Shown here piece by piece: positions 23,121 through 49,100 of a stretch of 64,000 nt of DNA. A model generated the notes under the pieces. That model did not search any database, had not been told where the DNA came from, and was given only the letters and a program-made list of their open reading frames with translations. The stretch lies in NCBI GenBank assembly GCA_965202585.1, contig OZ241829.1, forward strand, positions 14,818,001 through 14,882,000, written 5' to 3'. Within the stretch, counting starts at the first letter, position 1; every line of letters starts with the position of its first letter. The translations under genes were made by a program, and so were the position numbers. The DNA comes from Thalia democratica. Its lineage: Eukaryota.

Positions 23121-24166
23121 AATTTAAAGTGGGTTGTAACTTGTGTTTAAGTAGACAAGTAAGTAAAAATACTTCGAAAAATAGTTACTAAACAAAACAT
23201 TGTTTACTCAGAAGTCTACTGTATATAAAAATTAAAAGTTTGTTAATTATTAAATAAGCACACTAATTTTAACACACATATAAAAACATGCATACTATGC
23301 GTACTGTTATATAATAACTAAGAATTATAATGTGTAAGAGGAGTAAAAATTTTGTAATTATTTTAATAAATACAATAATATTAACAAACATACACAAATA
23401 GGCAAATTGTGTGTTTTTATCGTATGTATACTTGTTGTTTGAAATACTAACTGTAGTTTCCACTGAAATTTATGCTTCTTCTTACAACATCTTGGTAACT
23501 ACGATGGGAATTACCCCTACTTAAATTACTTAGAGAATTGCCTCTGCTTAAGGTTGGTGTAAATGCGGTAACACTTCGTTCACCTGGACCTTGAAGTTGT
23601 GAATCTGTAGGTGATGTACTTGGACTGTTTTGTTGCTTTGCTGTTATATCTGAAATAAGTTACATTTCGTTACTTGTTTAACATATAATTTGTATTAAAT
23701 TTAAAATTACTTCATATGTTTTTTTTGGTTAATCTTATAGTGCATAAATTTTAAAGTAGAAATATTCAGTTTCTACAGTTAGGAGTATTAAGTAATAAAT
23801 TATTCAAAAATTGCGTTTAACGTCAGAACCGTTTTATTGATTTTATTAATAAATATGTAGTATTTATGATGCAGAAAGCAACAAAACTAATAAATGGAAC
23901 TTATCGCTTTTAAATAATGCTTACATTAGAAATATTTTAACCAGTTATTTTTTACTTGACTTTCTTTTGTCAAAATTTGATATTTATACTTGGTCTGAAT
24001 TTTTTAGTCTAAATACATCTCTGTTATTTTTCAACTCTTTTGCTTTGACTATATATTAGATTTTTCACAGTTACCAAAAAAACTCAAACCCTCCACTTTA
24101 CAGAAGATTAATTTTAAACATTAAAAGCTTTTTTTGATTAATTTTCAAATTATAACTACAACTAAC

Positions 24167-24385
24167 TTGTTTTCTCAACTCCTCTCAAAAAGTTCAGATG
24201 TTCTATAAAGATTTTACCCGACTTCTCATCTTTGGTGATATCTGCGAAATCTTCTTTTGTCAACTCGCACAAATTTTCCCAAACGAAACCCTCAAACAAT
24301 TGTGACGTCACACTACGTAGATCGTACTCCGCGATGACCCAATCAACCCAAGCTCTGACGTGTTCCTCGCTCTACAGTTCCGGTT
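24167..24385 (-). pseudogene. Pointed (SAM-PNT) domain exon of the ETS gene
   Basis: PEL*SEEHVRAWVDWVIAEYDL...LCELTKEDF...GKIFIEHLNFLR, with a CAG acceptor and GTTAGT donor. Confidence 0.85.
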
Positions 24386-25576
24386 CTGTGTAATGAAAGT
24401 TTAAATGTTTAATTTTATTGTTACATTTTAGGTTGTTTTACGTCAAAGATGTTGTTTAACTATCAATCTGCAACCAGATTTCTATTTCTTTATAAATCAA
24501 AGTATAATATATGAAGTTTTCTCAAATCTACCTGTTCTAAAGTGCATAGTCGTTTACCTCCTGCCCTTAAGGGTCAACGTTGCCTATTTTGTCCTGGTTT
24601 AATAAGTATTTAGTCAAAAGTAAGTATTAAATATTATAATAATTCAATAAACTGCTATAAAATATATCAGTTTAAAAGAAAAGTCTAAAATATATATTTT
24701 TATATTTAAAGATTTAGAAAAAGGAACAGGGCGGGCAATGGCCCAAGCTGTTGAAGACGTTTTTCAAATAAATAGTTTACAAGTAGAAATCTTATTGGTA
24801 TATGTAAGTGTGATTATTTGGATTCAAATTTATCTTAGTACTTTATAGTCTGTTTATACATTTGTAAAATTTGTAATAAAACTTAATCTAAATATATTTG
24901 AAAAAAGTTTAAAACTTGTATTTTAAGCAAATTAAGTATAACATGCAAAAAAAGGTTATACGTATACATTGTAACGCTGTACTAATGAAATAATTTTCGA
25001 AAGTAGTTAATTTTAGTTCTGTTAATCATCTCAAACAATTAAACAGTATTATCAAAATCTGTTTAATCAGTAGATTCAAAAATTGTATGAATAAATTGTT
25101 AATGGTTTGAATTTTGTTTTGTTACTTTAATTGCTCTTGTTCATGCACTTTTCATAATAAGTATATATAGATTAAAGGGGGCATAATTACTTTTTATATT
25201 GTTTAGATTGATATGAAAAATACTACCAATGATAGAATAACTTTAAATATGGGGATTGAACTTTAAAAATACATGTTATTTTTATTTTAAAGATTCTTAT
25301 TCATGAACAGTTTTTAACAAGTTAATAAAACCAATAACCGAATAAAACTTAAACAATGGTTAGTAAAATTACATTCTTTTTTTTTTTAGTGTCAACAGCT
25401 TAAGTGATAATAACCATTTTGTTACAAATATGGTGTAGCTGAAGAATAAAAAGAAGAAACTTTGTAAAAATAGTAAGAGATACATTAAATGCAGTTATGA
25501 AAGTAAAACTTTTACCCTGAACAGCTTGTAGCTAGATAAAACGAACCTAACAGAGATAACGATACTTCATTCCTAG

Positions 25577-25893
25577 TTGCAGATAGGAAAACAGTACTGG
25601 GGTATTGATGCCACGGAAGAGGATGGTAGTTTGGGTCGCTTATTGGATGACTAGTTAAAAGTTTTAGCCAAGGGTGAGACCTAAGCTTTGCACTACCGGT
25701 TTATATCATAGCCGCCAAAACCCAAACTGCCAAATGAAGCTGTAGTAGCTTTTACCGTTACAAGTTCCAGTATAGTATGATACGATGCCACACTCATATT
25801 TTGTGGCTTCGGCTGACATAGCTAAGGGGGTAAGAACTGAGATGGAACTATGGGGAACCCAAACTTAAATCTCTCATTTGGCTAAAACTTTAA
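25577..25893 (+). pseudogene. SET8/KMT5A-like SET-domain fragment (copy A)
   Basis: YWGIDATEEDGSLGRLL ... HSRQNPNCQMKL ... PHSYFVASADIAKG(E)ELRWNYGEPKLKSLIWLKL*; matches the SET8 C-terminal pattern DAT..GRLINHS..NC..PHL..A..DI..GEEL.YDYG...PWL. Contains stops and frameshifts. Confidence 0.8.
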
Positions 25894-26059
25894 ACTAGTC
25901 ATTTATAACTCTGGTAGTGTAATTGTTTTACTGGGAACAAATTGAATGTGTAGTGAATAAAGGAAATAATACATTTAAAACAAGTGCAAGTAAACAAGAA
26001 GCAGAAATGAGGTCAGCTGTATAATGAAATAGTTTCTCAATAACAAGTCTATATACTTT

Positions 26060-26600
26060 AACAAAGACAAAACGATTGTGAATATACTTGCTCAAACTGG
26101 TTGCAACTTATAATATGGTTGGTGTTGAAACTATTTTCCGCAAATAAAACTCACATATAGTAACTGTTTCATGCACATGCCTCTCAACTAGCTTGTGCAA
26201 CTGCAACTAAGGACAAAATACCAAAAGTAATTATGAATGTCAGTTGATGAGTTGTATTTGTAAATGTGGATATAATTTTTTTCTAAAATACTAATTTGTT
26301 GGAACTATAAGATTTCTAATTAAATAAATAAAAGAACATGTTAAAAAACAATGTCCAGTTAGCACAGGGTGAAACTCAGAAAAAGGTCAAAAAAGGCTTC
26401 TAGAGAAATGTCTACCCATTTATCAGTTAACTAAACGGAAAAGAACTTATAAATATATAAAATGATGAGTTTATATTCGCAGTACATTTTCTTGGCGGAC
26501 TATATGATTAAGCTACACTTGGCGGACTATATGAGTGCTGATAGAGTGTATATTTGTAAAAAATATGAAGTAGTAGAATAACATATTAAGTATTTAACAT
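26060..26600 (+). mobile_element. Decayed hAT transposase mid-region (M.G and CxxH motifs)
   Basis: NMVGVETIFRK*NSHIVTVSC then, after a frameshift, HASQLACATATKDKIPKV; resembles the hAT A..M.G....C.CH.L.L region. Paralog at ~62170-62700. Confidence 0.5.
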
Positions 26601-27159
26601 TTTTTATTTTTAGAGCTCAACCTGTAACGAAAAAAATCAAATGCAAGATATTTGGTTTAACAATTTTATCAGAAAGAAAAAAAAATAGAGTATTTAAATG
26701 AAGCATCTTTATAAAAAACGTTAAAAATTCTTAAAGCCATAATTAAAATGCCTTATATGATTAGGCTCGACTTGCCTACAGACTTATGACAAAGAAAACA
26801 TTCCGTTGAAAACCTTCTTTTATCTGCTTTTAATGGAGAAAAGTTGGGGGAAATAAAAAGTATCTGAAGGTGTAAAATACTGTTATAAGGATTATTATTG
26901 TAAAATAGGCAATAATATGATTAGGCTCCGTTGTGATGGACCCTGAAAAATTTTCCAAGGAATTGATAAAATAATAGTAATTCAGAAAAGGCAGAAATCC
27001 AATTAATTGTTTATATAATTAAAGTTAACGAAATCAACTTCGAAAAATTTGTTACCAAAATTATTGGTTTGTAGCTTTCCAACTTTTTGTCTCTAAGTTT
27101 CGCTTGAAAACTAAATTTTTAATTTTCTATTTATTGTATAAAACTAATTTATAAAATTT

Positions 27160-27550
27160 TGTTTTGTCAGTAAGAAAGGTGCGGTTAACAGTCCCCATCG
27201 CTAAAGGTAATTTTATAAGTATACCGGGCGTCATTAAACCCTCAGCAATTGAAAGAAAGATCGAGCAGGAAAGATAAAGATGGCACTTCCTAAGAGTCTC
27301 TAAATAGGAAACAACTTCAGGGCGTTGATGCCACCACGAAAGAGGATAGCAGTTTGGGATGTTGAACCACAAAACCTAAATGACATAATGAATCTGAAGT
27401 GGCTTGTTAACTCCGAAAAGTTTTCTGGAAATTCGAATTCGATGTCACTCGCATATTTTGTAACATAAGGTAACATAACAAAGCGAGAAGAGCTGAAATG
27501 GAGCTACGGGGAAACACGTTTTTCAAAACCAAAGTCTCAAAACTGGCTAA
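27160..27550 (+). pseudogene. SET8-like SET-domain fragment (copy B)
   Basis: VPIAKGNF..., GVDA(T)TKEDSSLG, AYFVT...REELKWSYGE...QNWLK. Homologous to copies A and C, multiply frameshifted. Confidence 0.7.
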
Positions 27551-28169
27551 AAATTGTTAATAATTATGTGCACGTCAGTAATCAGTTTGAAACATTTGAA
27601 ACTTACAAAATCTTACAAAATATGTTTTTTTTTATACTTTACTTGTGTAATTCTACATTTACAGAATGAAAATTCCCATATGACACCATTGTAGATTTGG
27701 CAATGAAGTTAGTTGAAAAGACTTTTGATTTCCAAACCGTTAGCAGACGTCTATAAATCAATCATAACACTGTTAAACAAGGGATTTTGAGTTTTTTTTA
27801 TTTATTTTGAATAAGTGGTACAAAGGTAAGTTAGCGAAAAATGAAATTATAACCCATATATGATCTGCACTTATAATAAAAGCTCTAGCGAGTTATGTTA
27901 GGATTTCAACTGACGTTTCATGCTAAAAATTACTTTACAAACGCTTTCTTGTAAACATGGTTTAATAGTGTAATTTTGGTTGTAAAAAGCAGTTTGTACT
28001 TTAGTTCAAACCCTACATAACAAAACAATTTAATAATTTTGTTTTATTAATTTTTTTTGTAACAGGTTTTTTTTTAAAGCTGTAACACTAGAAGTTTTTT
28101 CATTAATTAGTTAATTAAAACACTTGCTAAAAAATAAGTTTACAATACTTTTTTTATAAATTTTCCCAG

Positions 28170-28450
28170 GTTTAGTTTTGAGGCCAAATTTTAAGTTTAG
28201 ACAGTGTGTACACTTTGATCAAACTCATGAAATTGATGAAGCAGCCTTAAAATTTCAACTTAGATTACCTACAGAATTAATTCCAATTAAAAACTTTCCA
28301 GCTGGGGACTGTTTGTTCAAGGCTATTTCCAAGTCACTATATGGTACTGAAAACCATCACTAAAACCTAGGGCTCCAAGATTTTATTTGGATGTTGCAAA
28401 ACTAAAGAAAATGCTGTCCAAATTAAAAGACTGTTCATACTAAAGTTGTT
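28170..28450 (+). pseudogene. OTU-like cysteine protease fragment (paralog at ~35960-36240)
   Basis: LIPIKNFPAGDCLFKAISKSLYGTENHH matches the OTU/vertnin-type G.CLFRA.S..LYG.E..H motif; follows a CCCAG acceptor-like site. Confidence 0.65.
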
Positions 28451-29339
28451 TCACTGAATTTGATTTCTCTTAACTATCATTGGTGATAGATGGAGAACAA
28501 GCTCTAATAAATTTAGTATACAAAATATTTCCTAAAAGTTTAGATCCTAATTTAAAGATTAGGTGAAAGTTTAAAGTTTAGATTTAAAATAAGAGGATAA
28601 TATAAATATTGGAAAACCAAACAATAGCTTTAGAAATTAGTAAAATAATTTCTTTCTAATTTAAGTAGTTTTTTGAAAGTAGTTAAGTTTTGTTAACTTG
28701 TATATCTTATAATATAAAGTTTCACTATTATATTTCAAACTATTCATTTATTTTGTTGTAATTTGAAGAAAAAAAAAATTGTCTGATGTAAGTTTGTTTG
28801 TCCTATACTGTTTTACTTTTTAATAAAATTTTTTTAGAGGTAATTAAAAAGACTGAAACCATCAAACATTCAAGCAAAATTCTTATCTGACGATAAAAAG
28901 CTATCTTAATTAAAACAGCATATACTTTGATTAATATCTCCTTACAGAGTTGCTGACTGGTAAGGGAATGCAGATTTAAGCAACAGGGTATTATAAAAGA
29001 AGTAAATGAAGCTAGTTGATTAAATAATAAAAAAGTCTTCAAATACATAAAGTTTATTGACTGAATTGCATTTTGTTATAAACAAAACTTAAGTTAAAAA
29101 GTAAGAATTTTAACAAGGAGAAATTACTAGTTGTTCTAAGCATACTTCAAACAAAATTCTTAGCTGAAGATAAAAAATCTTTATTAGATTAATATTTAAA
29201 AAATCACAAGCAAGAATATAGCTCCGATTGCTGACTTTTAAAAGGTAAGAATGCGTGTTTCAACAGGTTGCTTGATTATAAAATCAATGTAAATTTCTGT
29301 TACGCCACACTAATTAACAGCATTGCTGTTTGATAAAAA

Positions 29340-29762
29340 ACACAAAAGTTGTTGAAAAAAAATCTCTACGAATTGATAACAACTCTTTTGAATTTGTGTT
29401 AACTAAAACTGTTCAAATACAATCTGTAGAGACTGATAATAACTCTTTTGATTTTGTGTTAAATGATGTTGTTGAAATACAATCTGTAAGTACTGCTAAT
29501 AACTGTTTTGATTTGTGTAAAACTGTAAAATAAAGTTGTTGAAAAAAATCTGTAGGGACTGATAACAACTCTTTTGATTTTTTGTTAAATAAATTTGTTG
29601 ATAAATCTGTAGAGACTGATAATAACTCTTTTTATTTTGTGTAAAATAAATTTGTTGAAAAAAATATATAGAGACTGATAATAACTCTTTTGATTTTGTG
29701 TTAAATAAAGTTGCTGAAATACAATCTGTAAATACTGATAATAACTTTTTCAATTTTTTGTT
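29340..29762 (+). repeat. 60-bp minisatellite (~7 copies) encoding a 20-aa repeat
   Basis: Unit ~AAATAAAGTTGTTGAAATACAATCTGTAGAGACTGATAATAACTCTTTTGATTTTGTGTT translates as (N)KVVEIQSVETDNNSFDFVL. Confidence 0.85.
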
Positions 29763-29869
29763 ATATAGAAATTTTACATGAAAAGAAAAACTTAATAACA
29801 ATAAACTATATGTTAATACTGATGCTGCTAGTAGCTTTACTAAATTCATTGACCTGCAAGGAATAACAA

Positions 29870-30280
29870 ATTTTAAGTACAATGCGACAAATGCCTGAAA
29901 TGGTATCACAGATGGTATCTTGAAATGTTGCCCAAACAATTTAAAAAATAAAAGCCTATAAATCTGTGTTGGAGTTGCTCATTATGTGAATATATGTCAG
30001 ATGCTAATAATTCATAAGTATCTGCCACAAATGCTATAGGCAAGTTATAGAAATTGTAAAGAAGATAATTAAAGATAATAGTGGTTGGTTAAGTGAACTA
30101 AACTTTACTGCTTAGTAGATTTTTGTTTTAAAATATAAGTTTATAAAAACCAAGATCGAGTTGTTTAGATTAACAAATTTCAGGTACACTGTGACGATTG
30201 CTTGAAATGTTATAATAGATGCAGTCTTGAAAATCTGTCTAAACAGTTTAACAAAATTCAAGACCTAAAGTTTCAACAGT
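29870..30280 (+). pseudogene. Two PHD-finger-like half domains (third copy at ~33450-33550)
   Basis: VQCDKCLKWYHRW and VHCDDCLKCYNRCS resemble the PHD C..C..W.H..C motif. Confidence 0.55.
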
Positions 30281-31079
30281 TTTGTCATTTTTTAGAAATT
30301 TTTTACTGTGTATTAATCTCATGAAAAGTACTGTGTATGTTTGCCTATAATATGAACAGCAAGTAAAAGTTTCTGGCTGGAGAGGGTGAATAGCAGTCCA
30401 TGTATGAATTTCATGAAATATTATAAATAAACAATAATCAATGTAAAATTTGTAAAAAAAATAATTTAGAATCTAACATGATCACTATAACTGTCAAAGT
30501 TAGGAGACATCTACGTGGTCAAACAACAACTGAACAATTTTAGAGAATTCTAGAGGGTTGATATTTTAGAGATGATTGTAAACTGTAATCTGTTAATCAA
30601 TGGAGGAGGTCATCTAGAATTTGTTCACTTTATACAGTTTCTTTTCCATTTTTTAACTATTTGTTTTTTTTTAAGTCTAATTTTCATACGATGTGGTATA
30701 AGTTTTGATTAAATTAATTCATATAATTAATTTAATTTAGGAACTTGATTATAGTCTACAAAAAGGAATTTAACCTTTTTTTGAGAAATTCTATTAATGA
30801 TACTGAACAAAAAGATAGCCATGGTGAAAGTAAATTCACCAGTTAAAAAATTTGGACCAGTGAATTTGCCAGGGCCTGAAGTAAACAAGACATCTTTCAG
30901 GTTAAATGAGTCGTTTTCCAACATGAATATTGAAAGTCAGGCGTCACATATGCTAGATTTGAAGAAAACTTTTAAACTCAATGTCTCAAATTTCAGTTTT
31001 ACTTACTACGAAAAATAAGTAATGTTGCCTTACTAGGAAATAAAATTGCAGCAGTAATAAAACTGACAAAGTGCTAAGA

Positions 31080-31503
31080 ATTGTTAGTGATACTTTTGCT
31101 TTGCTACTCTCAATTCGATCACGACTGCTCCTTGAGATTTCCTAACGTCAAATGTGATCGCCTGAACGTTATATGCGAGAAACTGAGAGTAGTATATATG
31201 GAAATCTGCAAATATGTTTTATACCACATTTGCACAGTAACCAAAAATAGAAGATTAAAAAGGGTCATTCTACAAACTTCAAACTTTATTGTCGAAAGGT
31301 GACACACGCCTAGAAGATGTTATGCAGAAAATAGGTAGTGTTCATGACACAGCATCCTTAAAACGAACAAAATGTACAAAAATTATAACTAACACTATTG
31401 CACCTATATTCAGAAAACTAATTATAACTGATATGATGGGAAAGAACTGTAGTTTTTACATAGATGACAGCACAGACAAATCAGGATGCAGTTTTCTGGG
31501 CTA
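31080..31503 (+). mobile_element. hAT transposase N-terminal catalytic fragment (paralog at ~35165-35680)
   Basis: KRTKCTKIITNTIAPIFRKLIITDMMGKNCSFYIDDSTDKSGCSFLG matches the hAT RTKCT.II.N.IAP...FS..IDESTD.S motif. Confidence 0.75.
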
Positions 31504-31803
31504 AATGATTTTTAATAATTTTTAACATTTTTTGTTTTTAATGTTTAGTCTACCAACATTTTTTTGAAAACATGGTTTAATAGTGAAGTTTTGTTTGTAA
31601 AAAGCAACTTGTACCTTAGTTCAAACCCTACATAATAAAATAATTTAATAATTTTGTTTTATTAAATTCTTCGTAACAGGTTTCTTTTACAACAGCTATA
31701 ACATTAGAAGTTTTTTCATTAATTAGTAAATTTAAACACTTGCCAGAAAATGAGTTTACAAAACTTTTTTAGGGAGTTTCCCAGGTTTAGCTTTAAGGCC
31801 ACA

Positions 31804-33233
31804 GTAAATATTCAGAGGTTTTGAGTTAATGATAGCTGAGCAGTAAAAGTTGGTCACATCCCAAAATGCAGAATTTTTAGAAACTGAGGTAGAGCTAACT
31901 AATAGGATCATGAAATTCAATAAACAATAAAAAGTATACAATAAAAAAGTTACTGAAATGAATAAAGTCAGATTAACACCCAATGAGATAGTCAAGGCAG
32001 ATTGTATTAAGAAGTGGGATAGAAATTGGGAGACTAAATATAGAGGTGCTCAAAGGGAAATTAGAAAAAACATGGACAAAATTGACGGTTTTGAGGGCAA
32101 AATCATACCTGCAGGAGAGGGCAATAAATATGTTGATATTCCACAGCTGAGTGCAGGGCCAGGTATGGTTAAAAAGTACAGAAAGAAATTTGATGCTGGA
32201 TCAACTTCTAGTACTTTTTCACAGCAAGTCGTCGTTAGAAACCAATTGGCAATGGACAAATTCACAGATTACCACAAGAAGATTAGCAATGACATGAAAA
32301 TGGAAGAATTCAAGGGTCAGATCAGTATGGCTGACATTGACTTCTACTCCTATGACCGGGGTCAAGTTTTTAAGAAGATCTGGAAGTGTGCTGACGAAAA
32401 TTCCATGATCGCCAAGATGAGCGATAAAGAATTCGCTGCCGATGTTACTGATGTTCATATGGTTAGTTAGAGGAACTAACTTTGAGCGAATTAAGAAAGG
32501 ACTGAGTCAAAGAACTCAAGATCGCATAAATGTCTTAATGAATAGGTACGGGTTTAAAACTCGTAAAAAAGATGATACAACCAAGGCGATGGTAAGGCTA
32601 CAAAATGACGACTTAACAGTCTCAAGATTTTGTGATCTGTACCCGATGAGAGTCTGGGCCATTTGGCATAATACTGATAAAGCTCAGAGACCTAGTTTCC
32701 TAACACATACAAATTTAACAGATGAAGAGATAGAACTGGCTAGAAGTCTTCGATGTCCTTCATTACCCTATTTGTGCTCTAAAACCCTACGAGATGGATC
32801 CAAGGATTGTTTTGATTTTAAAAACCTTTTATCCTTTCATTCTATTTTCCTCCTCGACTTCGACTGTCTGATGTTCTCTTGGGTAAAAGGTAGGCCTAAC
32901 ATGCCGGACACTTTTAAGCCACGACTTGGTCTGATTTGCCAAATCGTGAAAAAGAAGGTCATGGCCAAAGATTTTGTGCCTAAAGATGAAAATAAGTTTG
33001 AATCTCTCAATAAAGCAAACCTTATTGTAGGAAATGATCACACTGAAATGAGAGAAAGCCCTGATTTGATCAAGAAGCTTGTGCCCATTGCTGAAAAGAT
33101 TCTCACTGCAGTGATGAACGAACAGGATGCAATTGAAAACTCACTAGAGAATATTTTGAATGACCTCAGAAATAAGAAAGAATTGCCTATTTTAAGGCCT
33201 AGTAAATCCTTAGGTTGTAATGTAAGTAAGTAA
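31804..33233 (+). pseudogene. Endogenous viral element: phenuivirus-like (Bunyavirales) nucleocapsid N gene
   Basis: ORFs 31958-32470 and 32442-33233 join through one frameshift at ~32444. Collinear matches to phlebovirus/tenuivirus N motifs (recalled): DFYSYDRGQVFKKI ~ FAYQGFD.RRV; WLVRGTN ~ ALTRGNK; INVLMNRYGFK ~ VEALINKYKLK; NDDLTVSRF ~ RDELTLSRV; RCPSL ~ MHPSF; FHSIFLLDF ~ AHSLYLLQF. The frame continues upstream to 31808 with two stops. Confidence 0.8.
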
Positions 33234-34291
33234 ATTTTCTTTCTTTATCTTTCCTTCAACTGCCAAACGTTCGTCATTCCAGTTTCATTCTAAGTGCCTT
33301 TTGTTCCACCATTAGACATTCCTCTTAGCTGTACATGACTGTAGGTAAGATTTTATTTCGTTTTTTAGTGCTGCTATACTTAATAGTTCTTTGATTATGT
33401 AGATTCATTGGGAGTTCAATAAAAAAATAATCGTTTAGATTAACAAATTTTAGGTATACTGTGACGATTGCTTGAAATGGTATAATAGATGCAGTCTTGA
33501 AATTCTGCCTAAACAGTTTAACAAAATTCAAGACCTAAAGTTTAAACAGCTTTGTCATTTTTTAGAAATTTTTTACTGTGTATTAATCTCATGAAATGTA
33601 CTGTGTATGTTTGCCTACAATATGAACAGCAAGGAAAAGTTTCTGGCTAGAGAGGATGAATAGCAGTCCATGTATGAATTTTATGTAAAATTATAAATAA
33701 ACAATAATCAATGTAAAATTTGTAAAAACAATAATTTAGAATCTAACATGATCACTATAACTGTCAAAGTTAGGAGACATCTACGTGGTCAAACAACAAC
33801 TGAATAAATTTAGAGAATTCTAGAGAGTTGATATTTTAGAGATGATTGTATACTGTAATCTGTTAATCAATGGAGGAGGTCATCTAGCATTTCTTCACTT
33901 TATACAGCTTCTAAACAAGCCTATATAGTACGAAATCATGAAATTTAATGTAAAAAGTACACTTTTTATTTTTTTAACTATTTATTTTATTTTATTAAAT
34001 CTAATTTTAGTATGATATGGTATAAATAGAGTTACTAATTCAAATTAGGAACTTAACAAAAAAGTCTACAAGAAGGAATTAATGTTTTTTAGAGAAATTC
34101 TTTCATTGATACTGGACAAAAAGGGAGCCATGGTGAAATCAAATTCATCAGTTAAAAAATTTGGACCAGTGAATTTGTGAGGTCCTGAAGTAAACACAAC
34201 ATCTTTCAGGTTACATGAGTCGTTTTCCAACATGGATATTTGAAGTCAGGCGTCACATATGCTAATTTGAAGAAAACTTTTAAACTCAATG

Positions 34292-35159
34292 CAGGGTTCG
34301 TGCGCGAATTATTTCTTTATTTAGCCTGAATGAGACCAATTTAGCCTGACATTTTTTCAAAGTAAGGGAAATACCCTTTAGAAATCATTCAAGGTATTGA
34401 GGGACAGGGACATGGTTAGTACTATTGTAGTCTTCAACTTCAACCAGCTTTATCTCCAAAATATTTTGAGCTTTAAAAATCTGCAAAAAGCAACTCATAC
34501 CTTAGTTATACATCAATAAAATAATACTAAATTGTAAAAAAGGTGATTGACCCCCCTATGCACTAAACATAACAAATTCAGTGATAAGTTTTTAAATAAG
34601 AGTTATGTATAATCTATTATTAGTGTAAAAATTTAATATATAATACTAAACACAATTGTTCAATTTAATTAATCACTAAGTAAAAAAACTATAACCAGAA
34701 GATTTTTATTAAAACGACGTGGTGTTTTATTAAAATTCAAAATGAAACGCTTACAAGAGTATAAAAATTCAAACAAACAGCTAAGTTGTTGAACTAAACT
34801 TTAATGTTTAAACTGTATTTGTTTACTGAACTTTCATAATTATGACATATATAATCTACTCAAAACAAAATAATGAAGATTCTTAAAAAAATTTTAGAGA
34901 TTTAACAAACGGTTCTAAGCATTTGTTTTTACAAATACTGACTAATTTTGTCTTTAATAACTAAATCTTTATTTAGAAATAAATTCACATCTTAATTTGA
35001 TCTTAAAAAGATTTCTCAACTTTTTTTAATAAAAAAATTTCAAGCATTTTAACTGAGAAAAACTGATATTCTCAAATTTTTAAATAAAAAACTGATTTAG
35101 CCTGAAGTTTTTCAACTTTTTTCAAAGAAACTGATTTAGCCTGACGCGCACGAACCCTG
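34292..35159. mobile_element. Non-autonomous DNA transposon with 15-bp perfect TIRs and 6-bp TSD
   Basis: TIR CAGGGTTCGTGCGCG at both ends and TSD TCAATG. The empty site AAACTCAATGTCTCAAA is present in the paralogous unit at ~30975. TTAGCCTGA subterminal repeats occur near both ends. Confidence 0.9.
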
Positions 35160-36872
35160 TCAATGTCTCAAATTTCAGTTTTATTTACTACGAAAAATAA
35201 GTAATGTTGCCTTACTAGGAAATAAAATTGCAGCAGTAATAAAACTAACGAAGTGCTAAGAATTGTTAGTGACAATTTTGCTATTCTACTCTCAATCCTA
35301 TCACCGATTGCTCCTTGATATTTCCTAACATCAAATTTTATCGCCTGAACGCTATGTGCGACAAACTGAAAGTTGAAAATGTGAAAATCTGCAAATGTCT
35401 TACGCCATATTTGCACGGTAACCAAAAATAAAATATTAAAAAGGGTCCTTCTACAAACTCAAAAACTATGTCGAAAGGTGGCACATACATAGTAGATGTT
35501 ATAAGAAAATAAGTTGTGGTCATGACACAGCTACCTCAAAACGAACAAAGTGTACAAAAATTGCAACTAACTTTCTTGCACCTATACTCAGAAAACTAAT
35601 TATAACTGATATGATTGGAAACAGTTGTAGTTTTTACATAGATGACAGCACAGACAAATCAGGATGCAGTTTTCTGGGTTAAATAATTTTTTATAATCTT
35701 TAAAAAATTTTTGTTTTTATTGTTTACTCTACCAAAACTTTGTTGAAAACATGGTTTAATAGTGTAGTTTTGTTTGTAAAAAACAGCTTGTACCTTAGTT
35801 CAAAGCCTCCATAACAAATAAATTAATAATTTTGTTTTATTAAATTTTTCGTAACAGGTTTCTTTTACAAAAGCTATAACATTAGAAGTTTTTTATTAAT
35901 TAGTAAATTGAAATACTTGCCAGAAAATGAGTTTAAAAAAACTTTTTTTAGTGAGTTTCTAAAGTTTAGTTTTAAGGCTACATTTTAAGTTAAGACAGTG
36001 TGTACACTTTGATCAAACTCATGAAATTGATGAAGCAGCCTTAAAGTTTCAACTTAGATTGCCTACAGAATTAATTCCAATAAAAACTTTCCAGCTGGGG
36101 AAAGTTTGTTCAAGGCTATATCCAAGTCACTATATGGTACTGAAGACCATTACTAAAACCTAAAACTCCAAGTTTCTATTTGGATGTTGCAAAATAAAGA
36201 AACTGCTGTCCAAATTAAAAGACTGTTCATACTTAAGTTATTTCACTGAATTTGATTTCTCTAAGCTATTATTAGTGACATGTGTATACAAGCTATAATA
36301 AACTTAGTTTACAAAATATTTTCTGACAGTTAAAAGTTTAGATCCCAATTTAACGATTAGATGAAAAATTTTTAAATAAGAAGATAATATAAATTTTAGA
36401 AAACCAAACAAAAGCTTTAGAAATTAATGAACTAATGTTCTTTTTAATTTAAGTAATTATATGAAAGTAGTAAAGTTTTGTCAACTTATATATCCTATAA
36501 TATAAAATCTTTCATATTATATTTTAAATAATTTATTTATTTTGTTGTAATCTTAAGTTTTTGTCTGATGCAAGTTTGTTTGTCCTATATTATTTTACTC
36601 TTTAATAAAACTTTTCAGAGGTAGTTATTAAAGATTAAAACCATCAAACATTCAATCAAAAGTCTTGTCTGACGAAAGCATTACTGTTTGATAAAAAACA
36701 CAAAAGTAAAAAAATATTGAGTGTAGTAGGTATATTCTATTGAGCATATTACTGAATAACATACTCATTACTTGTTCCATGGTTGCCATAAGTTTTGGCA
36801 AATTTTCTCTAGGTTTTCGAAATTTCCTTTAGTTTTTTAAGTACACCTATTGGGACTATTGTTAGTTTAAAG

Positions 36873-37591
36873 CAGGGGTTGCCAACCAGGGATGCAAGAT
36901 TGCTTATCATTTTTGTTTGATAAATAAGGAGATTTCACTCTCTGATAAAGTTTACAAAGTTAAAAAGTACATTTTGTTATAAAAAGAAGTTGGCGCTAAT
37001 TTTCTGAATAAATTAATTTTGGAAACTTGAACCATTTATAAACCATTTAGAAATACTATCCAAGTCATTTGACGGATATTTTAAAATAGGAGAACTGGAA
37101 ATTTCTGGAGAATGGATAATAAATCCATATTCTTTTAATTTGAATCACATGTCCGATGATGAGTCGTTAAAAGATGAACTTATTGAATTATGCATTTCTC
37201 AAAATGCAGTTTGAAAGCAAAACTCTTGAACAATATTGGTGTTGTTGAATGAATATGTTTCAAAAACTTGGTGAAAAAGCACTAAGTACTCTCATTCCAT
37301 TCGCGACGACTTACTTGTGCGAGTCTCTGGATTTAGTACTCTTTTGTCAATAAAAACTAAATCTAGAAACCGCTTTATGTTTAATTGTTATGTTTTTAAA
37401 TTTACAAGTATTTTAATTTTGTTAGTATAGTACACTATCATAAAAATCAAAATACAAATTATGAATTAATGAAATCAATGACTTTATAATCAAATTATTA
37501 ATAAATAATTATGGCATATAGCGTTAGGGGGTGCGAGATCAAATTAAGAGACTTTAGGGGTGCGGGGCATTAAAAAGGTTGGGAACCACTA
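36873..37591 (+). mobile_element. Internally deleted hAT (Charlie/Buster-type) element
   Basis: TIRs CAGGGGTTGCCAACC / TAGTGGTTCCCAACC and perfect 8-bp TSD GTTTAAAG. Dimerisation-domain remnant ALSTLIPFATTYLCES(GFS)TLLSIKTKSRNRF at ~37260-37378. Confidence 0.9.
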
Positions 37592-38649
37592 GTTTAAAGT
37601 AAAATAATGTGTTAAATAGTATAAAAGTATTAAAAAGACACTGTAAAGCTACTTTAAATGTGATTTTAATAAAAAAAAATTGATGATGAAATAAAATTTT
37701 AATCTTGATTTCTACTTAACATGTAAAAATTGTTTAACAATTCTAGGTTTTTCCAAGATTGCAGGTTTTTTGGCAACCCTGTCTTCAAATAAGACTTGAC
37801 AGTAGTTTTTTTTTCGGATATTTCAAAATTAAACAAAACTTTTTGAATTCAAGATTAAAAAATTGGCTAAAAAATATAATACTTCTGTAACATAATAATA
37901 TAGTTGATCGTTTGCTCAAGCAACCGAAAAAACTAAGACTAAATAAACTTAATATTTTCTGTGTAAAATAATTTTAAACAAGTTTAAAATCTTACCAACA
38001 GAGTCAATGGTGAATAAGGTAAAACAGAAACAAGTGAACCTTAAGCGCTTTGTTTTAAACTTCTCTTTTAATAATTATAACTTAACCAACATCTATAAAA
38101 TCTACAGCAAACTGACAACTTTCAATGTAAGTGCAATAATTTACATTTTAATAATTGGATGAAAAATAGGAGAAATCTAGAGTAAAAGTGTTGGAAAAGA
38201 CAGCAAAAAAAATTCTTGATAAAGTAGTTTTTATTATGTCAATAAAGAATAATTGGTTTTACACTCATTAAATAAAAAAAAATCGGTGAAAATTTGACTT
38301 AATAAAAACAATCTAATAAATAGATTACAATTATCTGAATGTTAAAAAAAGTACAAACAGAAACTCATGCAGTAGCGTTATAAACTTAAACAGTTTAGTT
38401 ACAGATATATCTATTTAATAAAAACAAATATGAGAAGTTTAAGAAATAATACTATTAGCACAGTAGAAAAAAGGAAATCGGGTTTAACACTTAATGGTAA
38501 ACAATGACAAAATCACATCAAAAAAATTCAATACCTAAAGCATTGATTGGTTTGTAGCTTTCAAATTTTGTAGTATGTAATTTTTTTTTTAAAGATATAC
38601 ATTTATTGATTAATCGTGTAAAATTTTTTATTTATAAAAACTAGTTTTG

Positions 38650-39038
38650 ACAGGAAGAGGGGTTCAACATCCCCCATCTCTAAAGATTATTGTTGTTCGT
38701 GTTGCCGGGACTTTATTAAATCCTCAGCAATTGAAGGTATAACGAATTTAACAAAGAAAATAAAGATGATACTTGGTTTTACTTAATCTCTAAATAGGAA
38801 ACGCACACTGAGGAGTTGATGCCACGGAAGAAGATGGCAGTTTGATGTTGAACCGCCAAAACCTAAACGGCCAAATGAAACTGAAGTGGCGTATTATGCC
38901 TGACAAGTTTCCTTGAATTCAAGAACTTGCCTACTTTGTGGCATCAGCTGACATAGTCATAGGAGAAGAGCTGATATGGAGCTTCGTTGGGAGACCAGTA
39001 GTTCCAAACTAAAGTCTAACCCTTGGCTAAAACTTTAA
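38650..39038 (+). pseudogene. SET8-like SET-domain fragment (copy C)
   Basis: TGRGV..., GVDATEEDGSL, AYFVASADIVIGEELIWSF, SNPWLKL*. Confidence 0.75.
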
Positions 39039-39099
39039 ACTAATCATTTGTAACTTTGATATTATAATTTTTTTAAAGCCTAATGTTACCAGAAGAAAA

Positions 39100-39297
39100 A
39101 ATTCTTGTAGTTTACAAGTTTAAATGCTACTGTGAAAATAGCGACATTGGACAAATTTCCCGTCACCTAAAAACAAGAATAAATGATCATGTTCCAAAAT
39201 GCTTTACGTATTACATCAGAGACAAAAAGATAAAATGAGCGTAGCAGTCAAAAATGCGATAAGAAAATCAGCTATAGCTAAACAGATACAATCATAA
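39100..39297 (+). mobile_element. Penelope-like element GIY-YIG endonuclease fragment
   Basis: VVYKFKCYCENSDIGQISRHLKTRINDHVPKC then, after a frameshift, VAVKNAIRKSAIAKQ; matches the PLE VVYKF.C.C...YIGQT.R.L.TRI.EH....SAIA.H pattern. Confidence 0.75.
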
Positions 39298-40299
39298 GGT
39301 CAAAGAAGAGAAACATCGTTAAATTATAAAAATAAGGTAGACCACATAATCAACAATTTTTAAAGTATTTTGCTATCTTTAGATTACTGTTAGTTGTTTT
39401 AACCTAAATGTAAAACAAATTAAAATATTTAAAGATACAATCATGAAGACAAAGAAGATAAACATCGTTAAAAGAGAAGAATAAGGTAGACCAATAAGAA
39501 ACAGCACCAACATATTGTAACTGATTTGAACAATTATCATGAAAAAAAAAATTTGACAAAGAGTTTAATTCTCTCTCTTTAACAAAGACTCCAAGTCTGA
39601 AGGTTGTGCTAGCATTGGAAATTTAGATTTGGTAAATGTTAAATGTTTGCATTTAAGTTCAAGAGCTTTAAGCGAAAAGAATATCGTTTGGACGAGTTCT
39701 ATTTTGAACACTGAAAGGTTATCAATTTTCATATACTCCACCGACGTCGATTCACCTACAATAGCTTCCAGTATAATTTAAACGAATATTAACAGTGGCT
39801 AGCTGTTGTTAAGTAAGATGCTGAAAACTAAATAGTAAAAAAAGAAAACTATCTATTTTACTAACTATTTAAACACAAATGAAACTTTTCAAAGGCATTT
39901 GTCGAAGACAAATGCCTTCTTTTTACCAACTTTTTATTTTTAATAAATTTTGTCTGAATTGACATATTCATATTAACATCAAGTTTATCACAAAAAGCAT
40001 GATACATTATTTAAAGAAAGTATTAAAAAGGCAAAAATTCAAGTTGTAATAAATAAAAGCAGTATGTAGTATTTACCTTCATTCAATTTTTTGTTATACA
40101 GTGTCGAAAGATGAAATTAAAACACTTCAGGGAAAAATTATATAGAAAACATCTTAGTACAGCTGTATTAGTTTAAGTTTGATTTAATTGCTGAGTATAT
40201 TCAGTATATAAGTTTTATACGAAGCAGTGGCAAATATCAAACCTAACATAATTATCTGCACGGATATGTCCACGGATAAGCATTAAAGGTGCATAATGA

Positions 40300-42600
40300 A
40301 AAACCAAATGAGATGAAAAAGAGTTTCTTTGAAAGGGATTGGATCAAGACTTTTATTATCTAGCTGCCATAGGAGTGGAAGTAGGCGTTAGCATGAATAC
40401 TTTTGTCAGGAATGATAATGAATTCCTGCTGAAAAGTCTTTTAGAGTACAACATATAGTTGGTTTTAAAACCTTGTAGAAAAAGTTAATACACCTTTGTC
40501 ACATACATGATACCAAGATAACAGGAAATGAAATACTGTGAATGCAGCTTGTCTAAGAATGATAGAATTACAAACTTTTTATTCTCTGATTAGGTTTCAT
40601 TTGACAGTAACAGATTCGAAAACTTGATAAAGGTTCCGCAGTTGATACAGAATTACCATAATAAACCTAAAAGGAGTCCTATTGAAAAAAGTTAATGTCA
40701 AAGATGTGTAATCTAGCCTTTCTTGCTCATCTTGAGGACAAAACCAGCACAAAGGAAGCAATAACCAATACACGGTACGTGACAATGAATGTACTTTAAA
40801 TAAATAAAGACGGTTCCGTGATGAAATTAATCAAAAAGTTTACAAAGATGACAATATAAAGGTTGAAACTGCTTGCAAGTCTAATGATTGCACTTCAGGT
40901 TGGAGATCATCTGTTTAGGGAGGTTGGAGAAGATGCTGTGTGAGACATGAAACACCCAATATTTGGTGATCCCATGGACCAGCCACAAGATGTTATTGGC
41001 GGCTTTTATGTAGGGTACTTCAAGGATAAAAACATTAAGAACGAACAAAATGCTGAGTATGCATTGGCTGGCAAACTGGCACTTGCAGAAGAAAAGTTGG
41101 AGAGTTGCGATCCTGAATTTTTAGGTGATAAAGGCAATTAATCTTTTAACTTTTACAGAATTTTCCCTTAAAAATTTTGTTGCCCGTGGTGCGATGACAA
41201 AGAAAATAATAGCACGGAATCATAGCGGTGACCCTGACATCAAAATAGAGAGAACAATATATCATTATATGAGCAGGATATCATGAGATGAACTTCAGAC
41301 ATCATTCATTACAGATGAGACACGGGAAAGCAATAAAAAAGCACACCGAGAGCCATGGTCTCCGTTGCTAAAGTTGCAACAGACGATGAACAATAAACCC
41401 ATTTATGAATGCTTGGGTGGATTACTTGAAATGTTTGAAAACAAGATGGAATACTTGTTGATTTATTTAATGAACACCAGAATGGGGGTAATGATTAAAT
41501 ATATGTTCTGGATGGAATATCCAGAGTCATACAGGCTATATGCGAAAGAATAGACAAATCAGTGTGCAGCCTTCTTTCTTCAGAGATCATGACTTACCCA
41601 AAAAATAAACAAAAACTGCAGACTGATCATCACAGCAAACCCAGACAGTACTTTGACAAGCCGTGCACTTATGAATTCTAGCAATGATTTTCAGGGTTGT
41701 GTCACACTAACTTAGTCACCAAATAATGACCGCATACATGCTGTCAATTGTTCCTAAAAGGTAGAGAGATTTTATAGAGAGGGCCTTTTCCATGTGAAAG
41801 AAAAAATAAATTTATCTTCAGACAGGCTTCTGCAATAAGCTCATAAATGATGTACACAAGTGTAAACCAAAAAAAGAGAGAGTTAACATGATCATGGAAG
41901 CACACAGAGGGGATTGTACAGTCTATTAGATGAAGAAGGAAGGTTTTGTCTATACAGCTCGTTCTGGCATGATGCAAGGAAATCCTTAATTTTTAGTCAT
42001 CATCCTTTTACGTTAGTTTCACTATAACAAATAAATGTCTTGAAGTGAACCTGATTGGGAACTACCCAACAAGGGATAATTGATAAATTTGAGGACAACT
42101 AGGAAAAAAAGAATGTCTTTCAACCTTGGGGAAAAAGAGAGAGGCAAAGTGTCAACAATACTATACTGTTTTGCATCAGGTTCTTGATAATGTTTCTTAC
42201 ATTGACACAGTGAGAGATGTACAGTTTGGTCAGATGTATGTACATTACAAATCACTAGGAAATAGTATAAATCACCTATTCCCTGACATGATGACTAGAA
42301 TGGCAATGACAAGAGCTCCTGACATGGGTTGGTTTCTTATAGATCATCCTAATGCAGTTGGAGTATTTGGGCTCAATTACATTATATACAGGAAAATTAT
42401 GTCAACCAAGATATTCAGGAGGATATTGACAATGGCAATTGGGAATAAGAGGAAAAATTTTGAAGATAGAAATTCTTCATAAAACATCAGGGTTAAAATT
42501 GATAAAGGGAAGAAACTTCAGGCTTTAAGAGACAAAATGGATGAAATAAATGAGTATGTAAATAAAAAAGTCTATGTGTACTCTGGCAGCAGGCCTTGAT
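40300..42600 (+). pseudogene. Endogenous viral element: phenuivirus-like L (RdRp) gene fragment, heavily decayed
   Basis: Collinear L motifs across frameshifts and stops: AIGVEVGVSMNTFVRNDNEFLLKSL..LVLKP..TFVTY (40357-40510); FLAHLEDKTSTKEAITNTRYVTMN (40704-40799); HPIFGDP...FYVGYFKDK (40947-41141); motif F LFNEHQNGGND*IYVL...ERIDKSVC...PKNK (41451-41620); motif A SSND (41677); motif B SGMMQG/ILNF*SS (41963-42005); QMYVHYKSLG...PDMGWFLIDHPNAVGVFG (42126-42482); GKKLQALRDKM (~42500-42540). Confidence 0.88.
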
Positions 42601-45357
42601 GAGCAATCACCTTTTACTTTATCCTAGTTGTTACCTCGATGAGCAGTAATATTTTGTTTTCAAGTTGTACATTTATTTTACATTTATTGTTTTTAGCATG
42701 CTTCAGAAAGTTAGATCTTCAATTAGATCTAATTTGAAACATTAAAAAAAGAAAATATTGAATCTCTACAGGAATTTGAGCTAATTGAAAAAAAAGTAGT
42801 GGTAGTATAAAGTTTATGTCTTATTTCAGTAAAAATATAAATTATGCCGCTAAAATACACCAAACAAAATTTGATCACAATTGAAAAATATTTAACAGAC
42901 CAAAAAATGGTTTTAAAGACTTAAAAAAACAAGTTTGTTTGCGAAATCCTCGAAACATTTATAAACAATTATTTTAAGAATATTAACAATATACGATATA
43001 GTAGTTTATTTGGTAATTATTGTGTCCCAAATTAAAAAACAATACGCATAAACTACTAAATACAACAATAAACAACATAAACTGTAAAGCAAAACTACTA
43101 TTCAACAAAAATCAGATAATAAAAATAGTTGAATGTAGTGCATAAATATCAATAAACCATAAGTAAGGATCTTTTCAATCCATATAAATTTTTTGAAAAG
43201 GATCTAGCCGGATACAAATCAATATAGCTATAAACTAAGTTACATCTAGATTACAATTTTTTTTTTGGAAAAATATCATTTCTAAAACAAACAAATGTTC
43301 AGCTCCCAAACAACTTTTCATAAATTTGAGAAAAATAGAATTCAATATGTTTAGCAATAAGAAATTATTTGAGAGGAAAAACATAATAAAAAAAGTTAAT
43401 GTAAATAGTTTTCAAGTTACACAAAATAATGAAAGTGTCATAGAATGTATGCAATTAAGGAAGGAAAATAATTTCAACCACATAATAAAGAGAAATTTAA
43501 TCACAAATATTTTCTGAAGAATCAAATCAAATTACCTCTGTATTGTCAAACTATTTAATCATTTCAAATAAATTCATTTTCTTTAATTGACTTTGAATAA
43601 ATGGCTTTAGCAAAAGGTAATGTTGGAAAAATCTGCAACTAAATCTTTGGTACTTTTGCAATAATTGTTGCAAAACCAAAAAAGACATTAATATAAAATT
43701 ATATAATAATTTATAGTTAATACCACAACAACAGATGTATATTTAATTTTTTTAATAAATAAAGCAGATTGGCAAAAACTTGATTTAACCTATGTTTACT
43801 AATGTATCAAATGTTATATAGCTATCATATATGAAGTTAAAAATATCAGAAACAACATACCTAGTACTTTTTAAAAAAAAATTTTAATTATATTTTTTTT
43901 ATTGAACAAAACTTCTTGATTTCAATGTCTATAAAACTATTTAAAAATATAATATTTTGTCTGCTTGTAATGCTCGTGTTTTAAAAACTCTTAAGCCTAA
44001 GTTTTAGTTCTATGAATACACAAGAATTCATAAACGAAACAACCTCTTAGACCTGAAAAAACTGCTTGATCAAGGTGTTTCTCCTCATCAACCACACTCA
44101 ATGAAAGGTGTCTCCCCTCTACAGCAACAATAATGAGAGGATGGTACATGAAACTAGGTGAGCCAACAAGGGGTGGATCAATTTGCTAGTTCTTTTGACC
44201 AACTTGGTACTTCTTGAACCTGCAAGTAAATTGTCTTAGGGTTCATAAAAGAAGCATTCTATTATCATTAATATATACATTTTTTAATCAGTAATTAAAG
44301 ATTTTTGTTATAAATTTTATGAAATTTTTTTTTAAATATTCATTAAACTTCTGAATATTATAACAAGTCTATATAAAGTTTTATTACTGCTAAGAAAATT
44401 GAATCAAATTAACCTTTAGGTTTTGATTGATTGTATTCCATTTTTTTAATGAACACTTTAGTCCAAACTATACATTGTATTAAAGGCTAACAAAAAAAGC
44501 TTATACGCCAGCAAAAATAAGAAAACATCAATAAACTATTTTAGATTTTTGGTATTTTTTATAAAATATAATGTAAATCAATACATAATACTATATATAT
44601 ATAACTTAAATTACAAACTTTGGTAACTTTGACATTATTAGATTTCATACAAAAAATGTTATGGAAGGTAAAACTTTTTTTAATTAAAATCTTTAAAAAA
44701 TTCGTTAAAAAGCTGAAGCATTACAAAAAACTTGAGTTTTAATTATTTTAAATTTCAAAGGAGACTCATCTAAGGCCATAAGGGGTTTAACCATTTTTAT
44801 TACTAAAATCAACTTTAGTCCTAAATGAAAGCTTAGTTTATAAACAAAGAAACTTTTCACAAAGTATATAAATTATTAAGTTTTTGTAACATAGTTAATT
44901 ATGTAAAATGTTTCTGATACAAACATTAAAATATTTTTTTATATTGCTGGTTTTCTTGGAATTTTGTAAAAAACTATTAAATCGTTATTCTCCTTTACTT
45001 TTTATCAAATAAACTTAAACTTTCATGTAATATTTCTTGCATTTATAGAAAAAAGCCCACTCTAATGATATTATTAAAATTTAAAAAAACTTAAGAATTT
45101 GATGACTGATAAGTAAAATAGCAAATCAATTTTTTTAGAAAATGAAAATCTTAATTTAAATTATAAACTATTAAAATAGCATTGCTTTAACTTATAAGTT
45201 TCAGAACTATTGATTAAAAACTGTAAGAGGAGAAATATTTCTAATAAATAGTCTTATTCACATTGGTACTTTCATAAGGAACCTATTAAACTCTCTAACT
45301 ATATAATCTTAATATCGAAAACTAGTTTGATATTTACTAAGCGGTAAAATGCAACTA

Positions 45358-49057: not shown

Positions 49058-49100
49058 GACTGAGACCGGTTTCGTCCTTATTAGGACTCATCAGTCAGTC
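49058..49100 (-). ncRNA. Type I hammerhead ribozyme
   Basis: Identical copy, +328 bp. Confidence 0.9.

Follow-up and report, generated by a model that had tools for sequence, protein, structure and literature searches.

We identified on chromosome C5 of the tunicate Thalia democratica (14.8 of 85.7 Mb) a block of about 17 kb in which two bunyavirus-like EVEs lie among transposon scraps, co-oriented on the plus strand, and we read this block, with a probability of about 0.6, as a putative uni-strand piRNA cluster. The features of the window (the whole 64,000-nucleotide stretch that was analyzed) are given in Table 1. A cellulose-synthase test of the tunicate placement, which has a separate basis, gave no match. 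Taken alone, co-orientation within the block is weak evidence; the argument developed below draws on sister blocks and on unlinked domains of the same genome.

Table 1. Features in and around the debris block (positions in the window).
Feature	Position	Strand	Basis or remark
ETS-family host gene (SAM_PNT and Ets exons)	19800..24600	-	Pfam SAM_PNT E 5e-11, Ets E 9e-5
Two SET-like scraps	25512..27555	+	motifs by eye only; third scrap at 38520-39075
OTU-like scrap	28160..28363	+	Pfam OTU E 0.035 (weak); second copy 35957-36160
Minisatellite, 60 bp unit, 7 copies	29345..29773	.	sequence repeat
Duplicated unit (PHD-like cysteine motifs by eye, hAT piece, repeat)	30163..31803	+	copy 33433-35982
hAT transposase exon piece	31300-31540	+	genome-wide hAT family, 137 matches
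Dispersed repeat, 205 bp	31597-31803		within duplicated unit
Phenuivirus-like nucleoprotein (N) EVE, single copy, two breaks	31820..33233	+	Pfam Tenui_N E 4e-4
Internally deleted Charlie-type hAT element	36873..37591	+	terminal inverted repeats, 8-bp target duplication
Penelope-like GIY-YIG endonuclease scrap	39107..39300	+	tblastn to Penelope-like open frames, same genome
Decayed phenuivirus-like L polymerase EVE	about 40270..42600 (well supported 40686-42482)	+	Bunya_RdRp pieces
Non-coding block, candidate precursor leader	43450..48153	.	same side of debris in 6/6 sister blocks
Candidate non-coding exon	43861..44219	-	acceptor AG|GTT and donor GTAT in 6/6 paralogues
C-type lectin host gene	55877..58225	-	Pfam Lectin_C E 7e-11

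Both EVEs combine homology to an RNA virus with integration into host DNA, as expected of non-retroviral EVEs, and both are homologous to Phenuiviridae, through N (PF05733) and L (PF04196), respectively. The N EVE is 86% identical to database protein P0001 and matches P0151 in two frames (67% and 87% identity); its frame is broken near 31930, by a stop or length-variable spot, and near 32460, by a single frameshift. It is present in the DNA-like runs X1-X3, and an X3 contig (33022-33600) spans its 3' junction with the host. Coverage of its 5' part in run X3 consists solely of a depth-2 contig, with no contig joining across. The L EVE has a longest open frame of 129 aa and falls about 230 nt below the expected length between 41499 and 42210, its Bunya_RdRp pieces are collinear (E 0.067, 0.31, and 6e-4), and it matched bunyavirus-type L proteins in the PDB (E 1e-4 and 0.03). 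The PDB entries homologous to the bunyavirus-like EVEs (6y6k, 7eei, and 9qtb) are presumably of the SFTSV/RVFV type. The L EVE was also present in DNA-like runs (two samples for both EVEs), with an X3 contig (42129-43460) bridging its 3' junction. A search for longer L relatives found none, and scans of virus contigs and metagenomes for relatives of N and L returned no matching virus contig.

The prediction that the two EVEs were captured independently and at different times held up. Two duplicates of the L EVE lie 44 and 162 kb downstream and, because the three copies differ neutrally, L capture predates the duplications of the array in which the block sits, while the N EVE was found in one block of that array only. 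A single integration of N and L was ruled out by their unequal decay, their copy number, and the 7 kb of unrelated debris between them. Genome-wide, N copies form at least five separate lineages whose synonymous sites are saturated or nearly so, and the copies are therefore not duplicates of one another, in agreement with the proposed recurrent bunyavirus. These N proteins form a clade on a long branch, about 530 aa in length with an N-terminal extension, whose relatives here are ENA/Logan proteins only. A genome-wide search with the Bunya_RdRp profile gave 0 matches and missed even the L EVE of the window, so that our EVE counts are lower bounds.

The original prediction had all parts of the block coding-sense on the plus strand, which stands for the N and L EVEs, the hAT piece, the Charlie-type element, and the Penelope-like scrap, while the identities of the OTU, SET, and PHD parts are weak. 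Pfam gave 0 families for SET and PHD in 96 read-through frames and the PDB gave no SET match; SET-like copies are confined to this C5 array, and no source element was found for them. What had been listed as SET, OTU, PHD, and hAT fragments comprises a hAT piece, a weak OTU match, and SET and PHD motifs seen by eye, mostly copies of one locally duplicated unit. The Charlie-type element is an independent insertion, given its terminal inverted repeats and target duplication, and it has a 90% match in the same orientation inside an EVE domain on C6. The GIY-YIG scrap, which precedes the L EVE by about 1 kb, and the open frames that it matches are taken by us to be Penelope-like from their motifs. 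A single giant transposon carrying SET, OTU, PHD, and hAT was considered and rejected: the hAT match ends after about 234 bp, the flanks are unlike those of dispersed hAT copies, and the repeat unit takes in the host kelch and lectin genes. Two unexplained ORFs, each folded from its single sequence, gave pLDDT values of 33 and 36.

The ETS-family gene forms the left border of the debris. Neighboring host genes had been placed on the minus strand, which is correct for the nearest, ETS and the C-type lectin, but not for a kelch gene on the plus strand (4141-5118); in sister blocks, too, a plus-strand kelch gene adjoins the block. A 45-60-kb duplication array, in which most scraps are repeated, includes the block as one of its units, and about 5 to 7 independent insertions remain in the block after allowing for local segmental duplication. 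The non-coding block beyond the L EVE recurs in the six sister blocks, two of them inverted, and nowhere else in the genome; its similarity is even (about 68-72%), as expected of an old duplication. Within it, the candidate minus-strand exon appears to have kept its splice sites in all six paralogues despite frame-breaking indels. Other captures, again co-oriented and in the block's own orientation, are found in the inverted sister blocks of this chromosome, namely a picorna-like RdRp (RdRP_1, E 4e-16 and 7e-17; the sole such locus found in the genome) and a reovirus-like VP3 (E 7e-6).

The same layout recurs on other chromosomes; EVEs outside the block include those at C5:15.19-15.27, C6:67.113-67.134, C8:30.137-30.18, and C8:56.333-56.37 Mb. 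A domain on C6 places a rhabdovirus N (E 2e-44) next to two bunyavirus N copies, and C8 carries a reovirus-like VP1 (RdRp, E 1e-41) and a picorna-like RNA helicase (E 1e-9). The archive thus covers four virus groups on three chromosomes, more than had been stated originally. Out to 12 kb from 18 EVE anchors, two reovirus anchors included, 20 of 21 class-by-locus transposon units lie on the EVE strand after duplicates are collapsed (p 2e-5, an optimistic value, since the transposon library derives partly from the same loci and units may share origins), and all seven neighboring EVE pairs within 45 kb are co-oriented (7/7). Counting sister and unlinked domains in this way, the strand bias exceeds that expected from tandem duplication. 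The debris seen comprises Penelope, hAT, and MULE elements, in a transposon library that barely represents LTR elements. An unfiltered tally of long ORFs gave 18 on the same strand versus 17 on the opposite strand, 12 of the latter 17 being host-gene frames; in clustered domains alone it gave 13 versus 3. EVEs also cluster genome-wide beyond chance, a point that the original prediction had left to be checked: 4 of 14 independent captures, from an EVE list that is a lower bound, have another within 15 kb (simulated P about 1e-5 under uniform placement), an enrichment in few loci as in an Aedes-type EVE-trap cluster. Finally, the block has a purine skew of 0.065-0.072 (0.057-0.062 with the EVEs removed), above all 41 control stretches of 10 kb (sd 0.021, maximum 0.052), and its minus strand is 37% U.

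We propose that a long RNA of the minus strand would run into the debris from the conserved non-coding sequence (43.4-48.2 kb), read all content antisense, and be processed to U-first piRNAs that the host's PIWI protein would take up. An open frame of the PIWI clade is present at C8:51.63 Mb (E 1e-222; best PDB matches Piwi and PIWIL2), and Ciona ovaries are reported to contain 26-30-nt U-first antisense RNAs (PMC5897368). Viral mRNA would be reverse-transcribed by a host retroelement, for which Penelope-like elements may be the best local candidate; insertions antisense to the transcript would be retained, and the cassette would spread by segmental duplication, each copy gathering its own content. 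Two results speak against such a transcript: 545 polarized substitutions showed no strand asymmetry (all p above 0.3), and AATAAA is not depleted on the minus strand beyond composition. The main target would probably be transposons, and the silencing of viruses might be a further use. An antiviral role of this locus is a tentative proposal, less sure than the cluster reading; in mice, knockout of piRNA-making EBLNs is reported to have left susceptibility unaltered (PMC12112416). Doubtful again is the broadest version, a genome-wide heritable small-RNA memory of viruses built from duplicated one-strand cassettes with a non-coding leader, fed by Penelope-like reverse transcriptase, and making piRNAs against living phenui-, rhabdo-, picorna-, and reo-like viruses.

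A major question is whether the orientation could arise passively. A minus-strand transcript might cross the block as an intron or by read-through (a non-coding RNA, read-through from the lectin gene, a possible source, or a far 5' ETS exon), with antisense insertions tolerated and sense insertions purged for adding splice and poly(A) signals, no piRNAs being made. Isolated EVEs at dynein, GPN1, and trypsin-like loci do lie antisense to ordinary host genes, explicable by passive selection without piRNAs; ETS and lectin are both on the minus strand, the candidate exon is compatible with this account too, and AATAAA is twice as dense on the plus strand as on the minus strand (3.75 versus 1.87 per kb). 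However, passive tolerance leaves the pile-up of different viruses in the same few domains unexplained, no comparable skew is seen in the dynein stretch or across the ETS and lectin genes, and no ETS coding exons were found beside the sister blocks. We consider it unlikely, though a real rival.

A further alternative, improbable in our view, is that Penelope-like reverse transcriptase co-captured these sequences by template switching or 3' transduction, so that head-to-tail laying and not selection set their orientation. A Penelope-like piece lies within 3 kb of 8 of the 18 EVEs, as it does for 22% of background points (p 0.03), 14 of the 18 share their strand with the nearest such piece, and the rotifer Terminons, giant Penelope-like retroelements, are described as head-to-tail arrays with captured genes (PMC6431247), a likeness to the present loci. 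Yet the Charlie-type element came by cut-and-paste and the hAT piece extends about 30 bp into its intron, both co-oriented nonetheless, and, unlike Terminons, the loci gave no hammerhead or other Rfam match, lie away from contig ends, the block itself being non-telomeric, and yielded no coherent element boundaries. Such co-capture may account for the acquisition of the sequences while being compatible with a piRNA cluster. Least probable of all is duplication plus chance, in which a few scraps and two EVEs that aligned by chance were multiplied, or else the region is transcribed on the plus strand from the ETS promoter: the array and the recurrence of piece 24554-24843 along the left margin of four further debris stretches speak for it, but non-duplicated content in the inverted blocks, C6, and C8 obeys the same rule, the N copies are saturated or nearly so at synonymous sites, and the collapsed strand tally largely refutes duplication alone.

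Read as a candidate piRNA cluster, the block resembles the core uni-strand clusters of Aedes, reported to be enriched in antisense nrEVEs (bioRxiv 10.1101/2022.08.22.504762): in both, fragments of many unrelated RNA viruses share one orientation, are interspersed with transposon debris, and follow a host gene of the same strand, and the content is renewed whereas the upstream part persists. It differs in its chordate host, in its debris of Penelope, hAT, and MULE elements as far as the library shows, in its segmentally duplicated cassette with a non-coding border block, and in being known from genomic layout. Mammalian EBLNs, derived from nucleoprotein mRNA, are described as lying antisense in one-strand pachytene piRNA loci above chance (PMC4574747), and likewise are N-derived EVEs in chordate one-strand loci; they represent one virus family and few elements, whereas the loci described here span four virus groups, include both N and polymerase genes, and show repeated capture of one clade. 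A rhabdo-like EVE of the dog whelk and parvo-like EVEs of starfish and anemone, also non-arthropod marine invertebrates, are tied to piRNA-like 5'U antisense small RNAs on transcript contigs (PMC6085071), whereas what is known of the tunicate locus is its genomic layout. The claim of novelty outside arthropods was thus overstated, given the antisense EVE piRNAs reported in rodents and primates (PMC4574747) and in the dog whelk (PMC6085071); a prior report of such loci in tunicates, the host group here, was not found in open-licence PMC and bioRxiv texts.

These loci bear on whether immune memory by EVE-derived piRNAs is general among animals or peculiar to mosquitoes, a question for which mammals offer few bornavirus cases and one reported negative knockout (PMC12112416). 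Multi-virus, strand-polarized loci allow that question to be put to an invertebrate chordate, and predictions are already in place for the strand, the entry block, and the virus clades that would be targeted. They also bring to light a bunyavirus-like N clade, not described before, that entered the germline of this lineage at least five times, and point to Penelope-like elements as a possible route of RNA-virus integration. If the broadest version above is true, a mosquito-style antiviral archive would exist in the sister group of vertebrates.

The bunyavirus-like N and L EVEs, phenuivirus-like nucleoprotein and polymerase segments respectively, are real constituents of the 802-Mb host genome, the setting of the window (C5:14818001-14882000) and of our genome-wide searches. 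A GPN1 exon places the host among the tunicates: its best named hits are in Clavelina, Ciona, Phallusia and Styela, with every other named animal ranking below them. Both are present in three DNA-like sequencing runs from two samples, and contigs from one of these (X3) span the 3' junction of each, so neither is an assembly artefact; as the original prediction had it, both lie on the plus strand. The N EVE is 86% identical to the ENA protein P0001 and matches a second database protein, P0151, at 67% and 87%, split over two frames. Two breaks interrupt it: one near 31930, where the length differs from sample to sample, and a frameshift near 32460. Searching 1.84 billion proteins with an N profile recovered 25 relatives, the distant ones clearly Tenui_N proteins. 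The L EVE matches solved bunyavirus-type L proteins (E = 1e-4 and 0.03), is internally shortened and has a longest frame of 129 aa.

Features of the window (plain coordinates) and of other fetched stretches of the host genome (L numbers; C, chromosome)
Feature	Position	Strand	Observation
Bunyavirus-like N EVE	31820-33233	+	Tenui_N (Pfam), E = 4e-4
Pyrimidine-rich stretch directly after N	33233-33432		200 bp; skew opposite to the block's; no match in other fetched DNA; may be part of an ambisense viral gene
Decayed bunyavirus-like L EVE	~40270-42600	+	Three collinear Bunya_RdRp pieces
Candidate exon	44219-43861	-	Acceptor and donor kept in 6/6 paralogues; frame-breaking indels inside
Non-coding block	43450-48153		4.7 kb; six paralogues, four on +, two inverted
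Site of absent segment	48153-48163		~13 kb with kelch gene in sister blocks, missing here
Tandem array	48601-50616		328-bp unit, 99% alike, one inverted arm
Second purine-skewed stretch	52001-54000		Between satellite and lectin gene
Frame without Pfam family	12540-13460	-	306 aa; retroelement ORF1-like by eye
In-frame stop in ETS gene	24372-24374		Just before SAM/Pointed frame, at a position we take from the motif to be usually tryptophan; possibly a pseudogene or null allele
Divergent bunya N frame	L025:4196-5389 (C8:63.72 Mb)		398 aa; in dynein heavy chain intron, antisense to gene
Rhabdovirus-like N frame	L014:3074-4456 (C6:67.128 Mb)		Uninterrupted; 0.7 kb from bunya N EVE; 11 matches genome-wide; either a recent capture or host-kept
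Reovirus-like RdRp frame	L023:7327-9999 + L144:3-3834 (C8:30.162-30.169 Mb)		891 aa, then related long frames; duplicated frame with cold-shock domain at end
Co-oriented frames in skewed domains	L127:2-874, L128:5477-6166, L129:9054-9821, L014:8395-8970		190-290 aa; no Pfam match, no PDB match for two tried; possibly further viral captures

Three L copies, every one inside the local array, have diverged neutrally (dN 0.06, dS 0.09 to the far copy), whereas N is present there once. This agrees with the proposal of independent captures at different times, and we infer that L is probably older than the duplications and N a later arrival. The virus had also been proposed to be recurrent. Ten N-like matches are spread over C5, C6 and C8; between lineages, dS exceeds 1.2 or is saturated and dN is 0.17-0.73 (10 comparisons), and in a tree of 17 rows several genomic copies each pair with different database proteins. 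Divergences and pairings together indicate that one bunyavirus-like clade was captured at least five times. Intact N proteins of 527-530 aa from the same clade (the P0123 cluster, six ENA/Logan members on contigs of 2.7-4.6 kb) may come either from a segment of a living virus or from an EVE that has been conserved. The two C6 copies (L003 and L004, at 67.117 and 67.130 Mb) differ by dN 0.02 and dS 0.10, a hint that closely related viruses were captured twice or that the frame is under selection.

The scraps around the EVEs, labelled SET, OTU, PHD, hAT, Charlie and Penelope-like element (PLE), do all lie on the plus strand as claimed, but they are largely duplicated. Self-comparison finds 30163-31803 again at 33433-35982, with further repeated pieces at 27930 and 35724, and the whole block is a single unit, kelch and lectin genes included, of a ~400-kb duplication array. 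SET-like scraps were found in this local C5 array only; because none of 96 read-through frames matched a Pfam family, the SET and PHD labels are by-eye motifs, while the hAT piece (~234 bp of a dispersed family) and the Charlie element (TIRs and an 8-bp target duplication) stand. About five to seven independent insertions remain, all on plus, for which simple arithmetic puts the block's own orientation bias at no better than p about 0.02-0.06.

The orientation question is decided by the wider genome. Of 21 transposon units located no more than 12 kb from one of 18 EVE anchors, 20 lie on the strand of the EVE (50-protein library from fetched frames, units collapsed by class and locus family; p = 2e-5, optimistic in that the library was drawn partly from the EVE loci themselves), and all seven EVE pairs within 45 kb are co-oriented. 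A library-free tally of long ORFs gives 18 on the same strand versus 17 on the opposite one, 12 of the latter being host-gene frames near isolated EVEs; for clustered domains only, the tally is 13 versus 3. Purine skew, likewise library-free, reaches 0.065-0.072 in the block (0.057-0.062 with EVEs removed), and 15 selected stretches of the domains gave 0.064-0.105; in 41 controls hand-chosen from fetched DNA the maximum was 0.052 (sd 0.021). Four of 14 independent captures lie no more than 15 kb from a further one (P = 1e-5 under uniform placement).

The non-coding block lies on the same side of the debris in all six paralogues and was not found elsewhere in the genome. Its inverted copies are adjoined by other captures, oriented as the block itself: a picorna-like RdRp (E = 4e-16 and 7e-17), the sole such locus found in the genome, and a VP3-like capture (E = 7e-6 to 7xr2, which we take to be a reovirus protein). 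Further domains combine two bunya N with a rhabdo N frame of 461 aa (C6:67.113-67.134 Mb), bunya N with a reovirus-like VP1 (E = 1e-41; C8:30.14-30.18 Mb) and, in a paralogue of the latter, bunya N with a picorna-like helicase (C8:56.33-56.37 Mb).

Insert orientation by itself does not point to the transcribed strand. The best hint of minus-strand reading is the candidate exon; the closest genes on either side are also on minus, so the placement originally claimed for neighbouring host genes is right for the nearest on each flank. Counting against such reading, the non-coding block is evenly 68-72% alike between paralogues, as expected of old duplicates. Polarised substitutions (n = 545) showed no strand asymmetry, and AATAAA is no scarcer on minus than composition predicts. 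Since a plus-strand kelch gene follows in sister blocks, the non-coding block may be that gene's upstream region.

We favour a uni-strand piRNA cluster, at a probability of roughly 0.6 on the sequence data. A minus-strand precursor would read all inserts antisense, insertions in this orientation would be retained, and the cassette would have spread through duplication, each copy gathering new content. Several Piwi-domain loci exist in the genome (26 matches), including a PIWI-clade locus on C8 (E = 1e-222). Viral cDNA was possibly made by a Penelope-like RT, for which the presence of a PLE piece within 3 kb of 8 of 18 EVEs (22% background, p = 0.03) is suggestive only. An antiviral role would be a further step, and a doubtful one. 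The isolated EVEs that run antisense to dynein, GPN1 and a trypsin-like gene are as expected if antisense insertions were retained passively beneath any minus-strand transcript; EVE clustering does not fit this reading, which we regard as unlikely. PLE co-capture as the only cause could draw on the same proximity, yet fails on the cut-and-paste Charlie insertion and is improbable. Duplication plus chance, or plus-strand reading, is slightly more improbable still.

The arrangement resembles the Aedes core clusters in what is described of them (10.1101/2022.08.22.504762), the likeness here being one of genomic layout alone. The suggested rarity outside arthropods needs narrowing: antisense EVE piRNAs are described for EBLNs (PMC4574747) and, in a dog whelk, for a rhabdo-like EVE (PMC6085071). 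Knocking out EBLNs is reported to be without effect in one infection model (PMC12112416). For tunicate EVE clusters we found no report in open-licence PMC and bioRxiv articles. Ciona ovaries are reported to contain antisense U-first RNAs of 26-30 nt (PMC5897368), and tunicate metatranscriptomes, as described, hold bunya-, picorna-, reo- and rhabdo-like viruses, the same four groups as among the EVEs here (10.1101/2024.12.15.628590); the cognate viruses may be named in that preprint's supplementary material. The first reading is partly supported and widened: this is a real feature, a family of tunicate loci that combine several viruses and are polarised by strand, and one that makes a sharp and cheap test possible.
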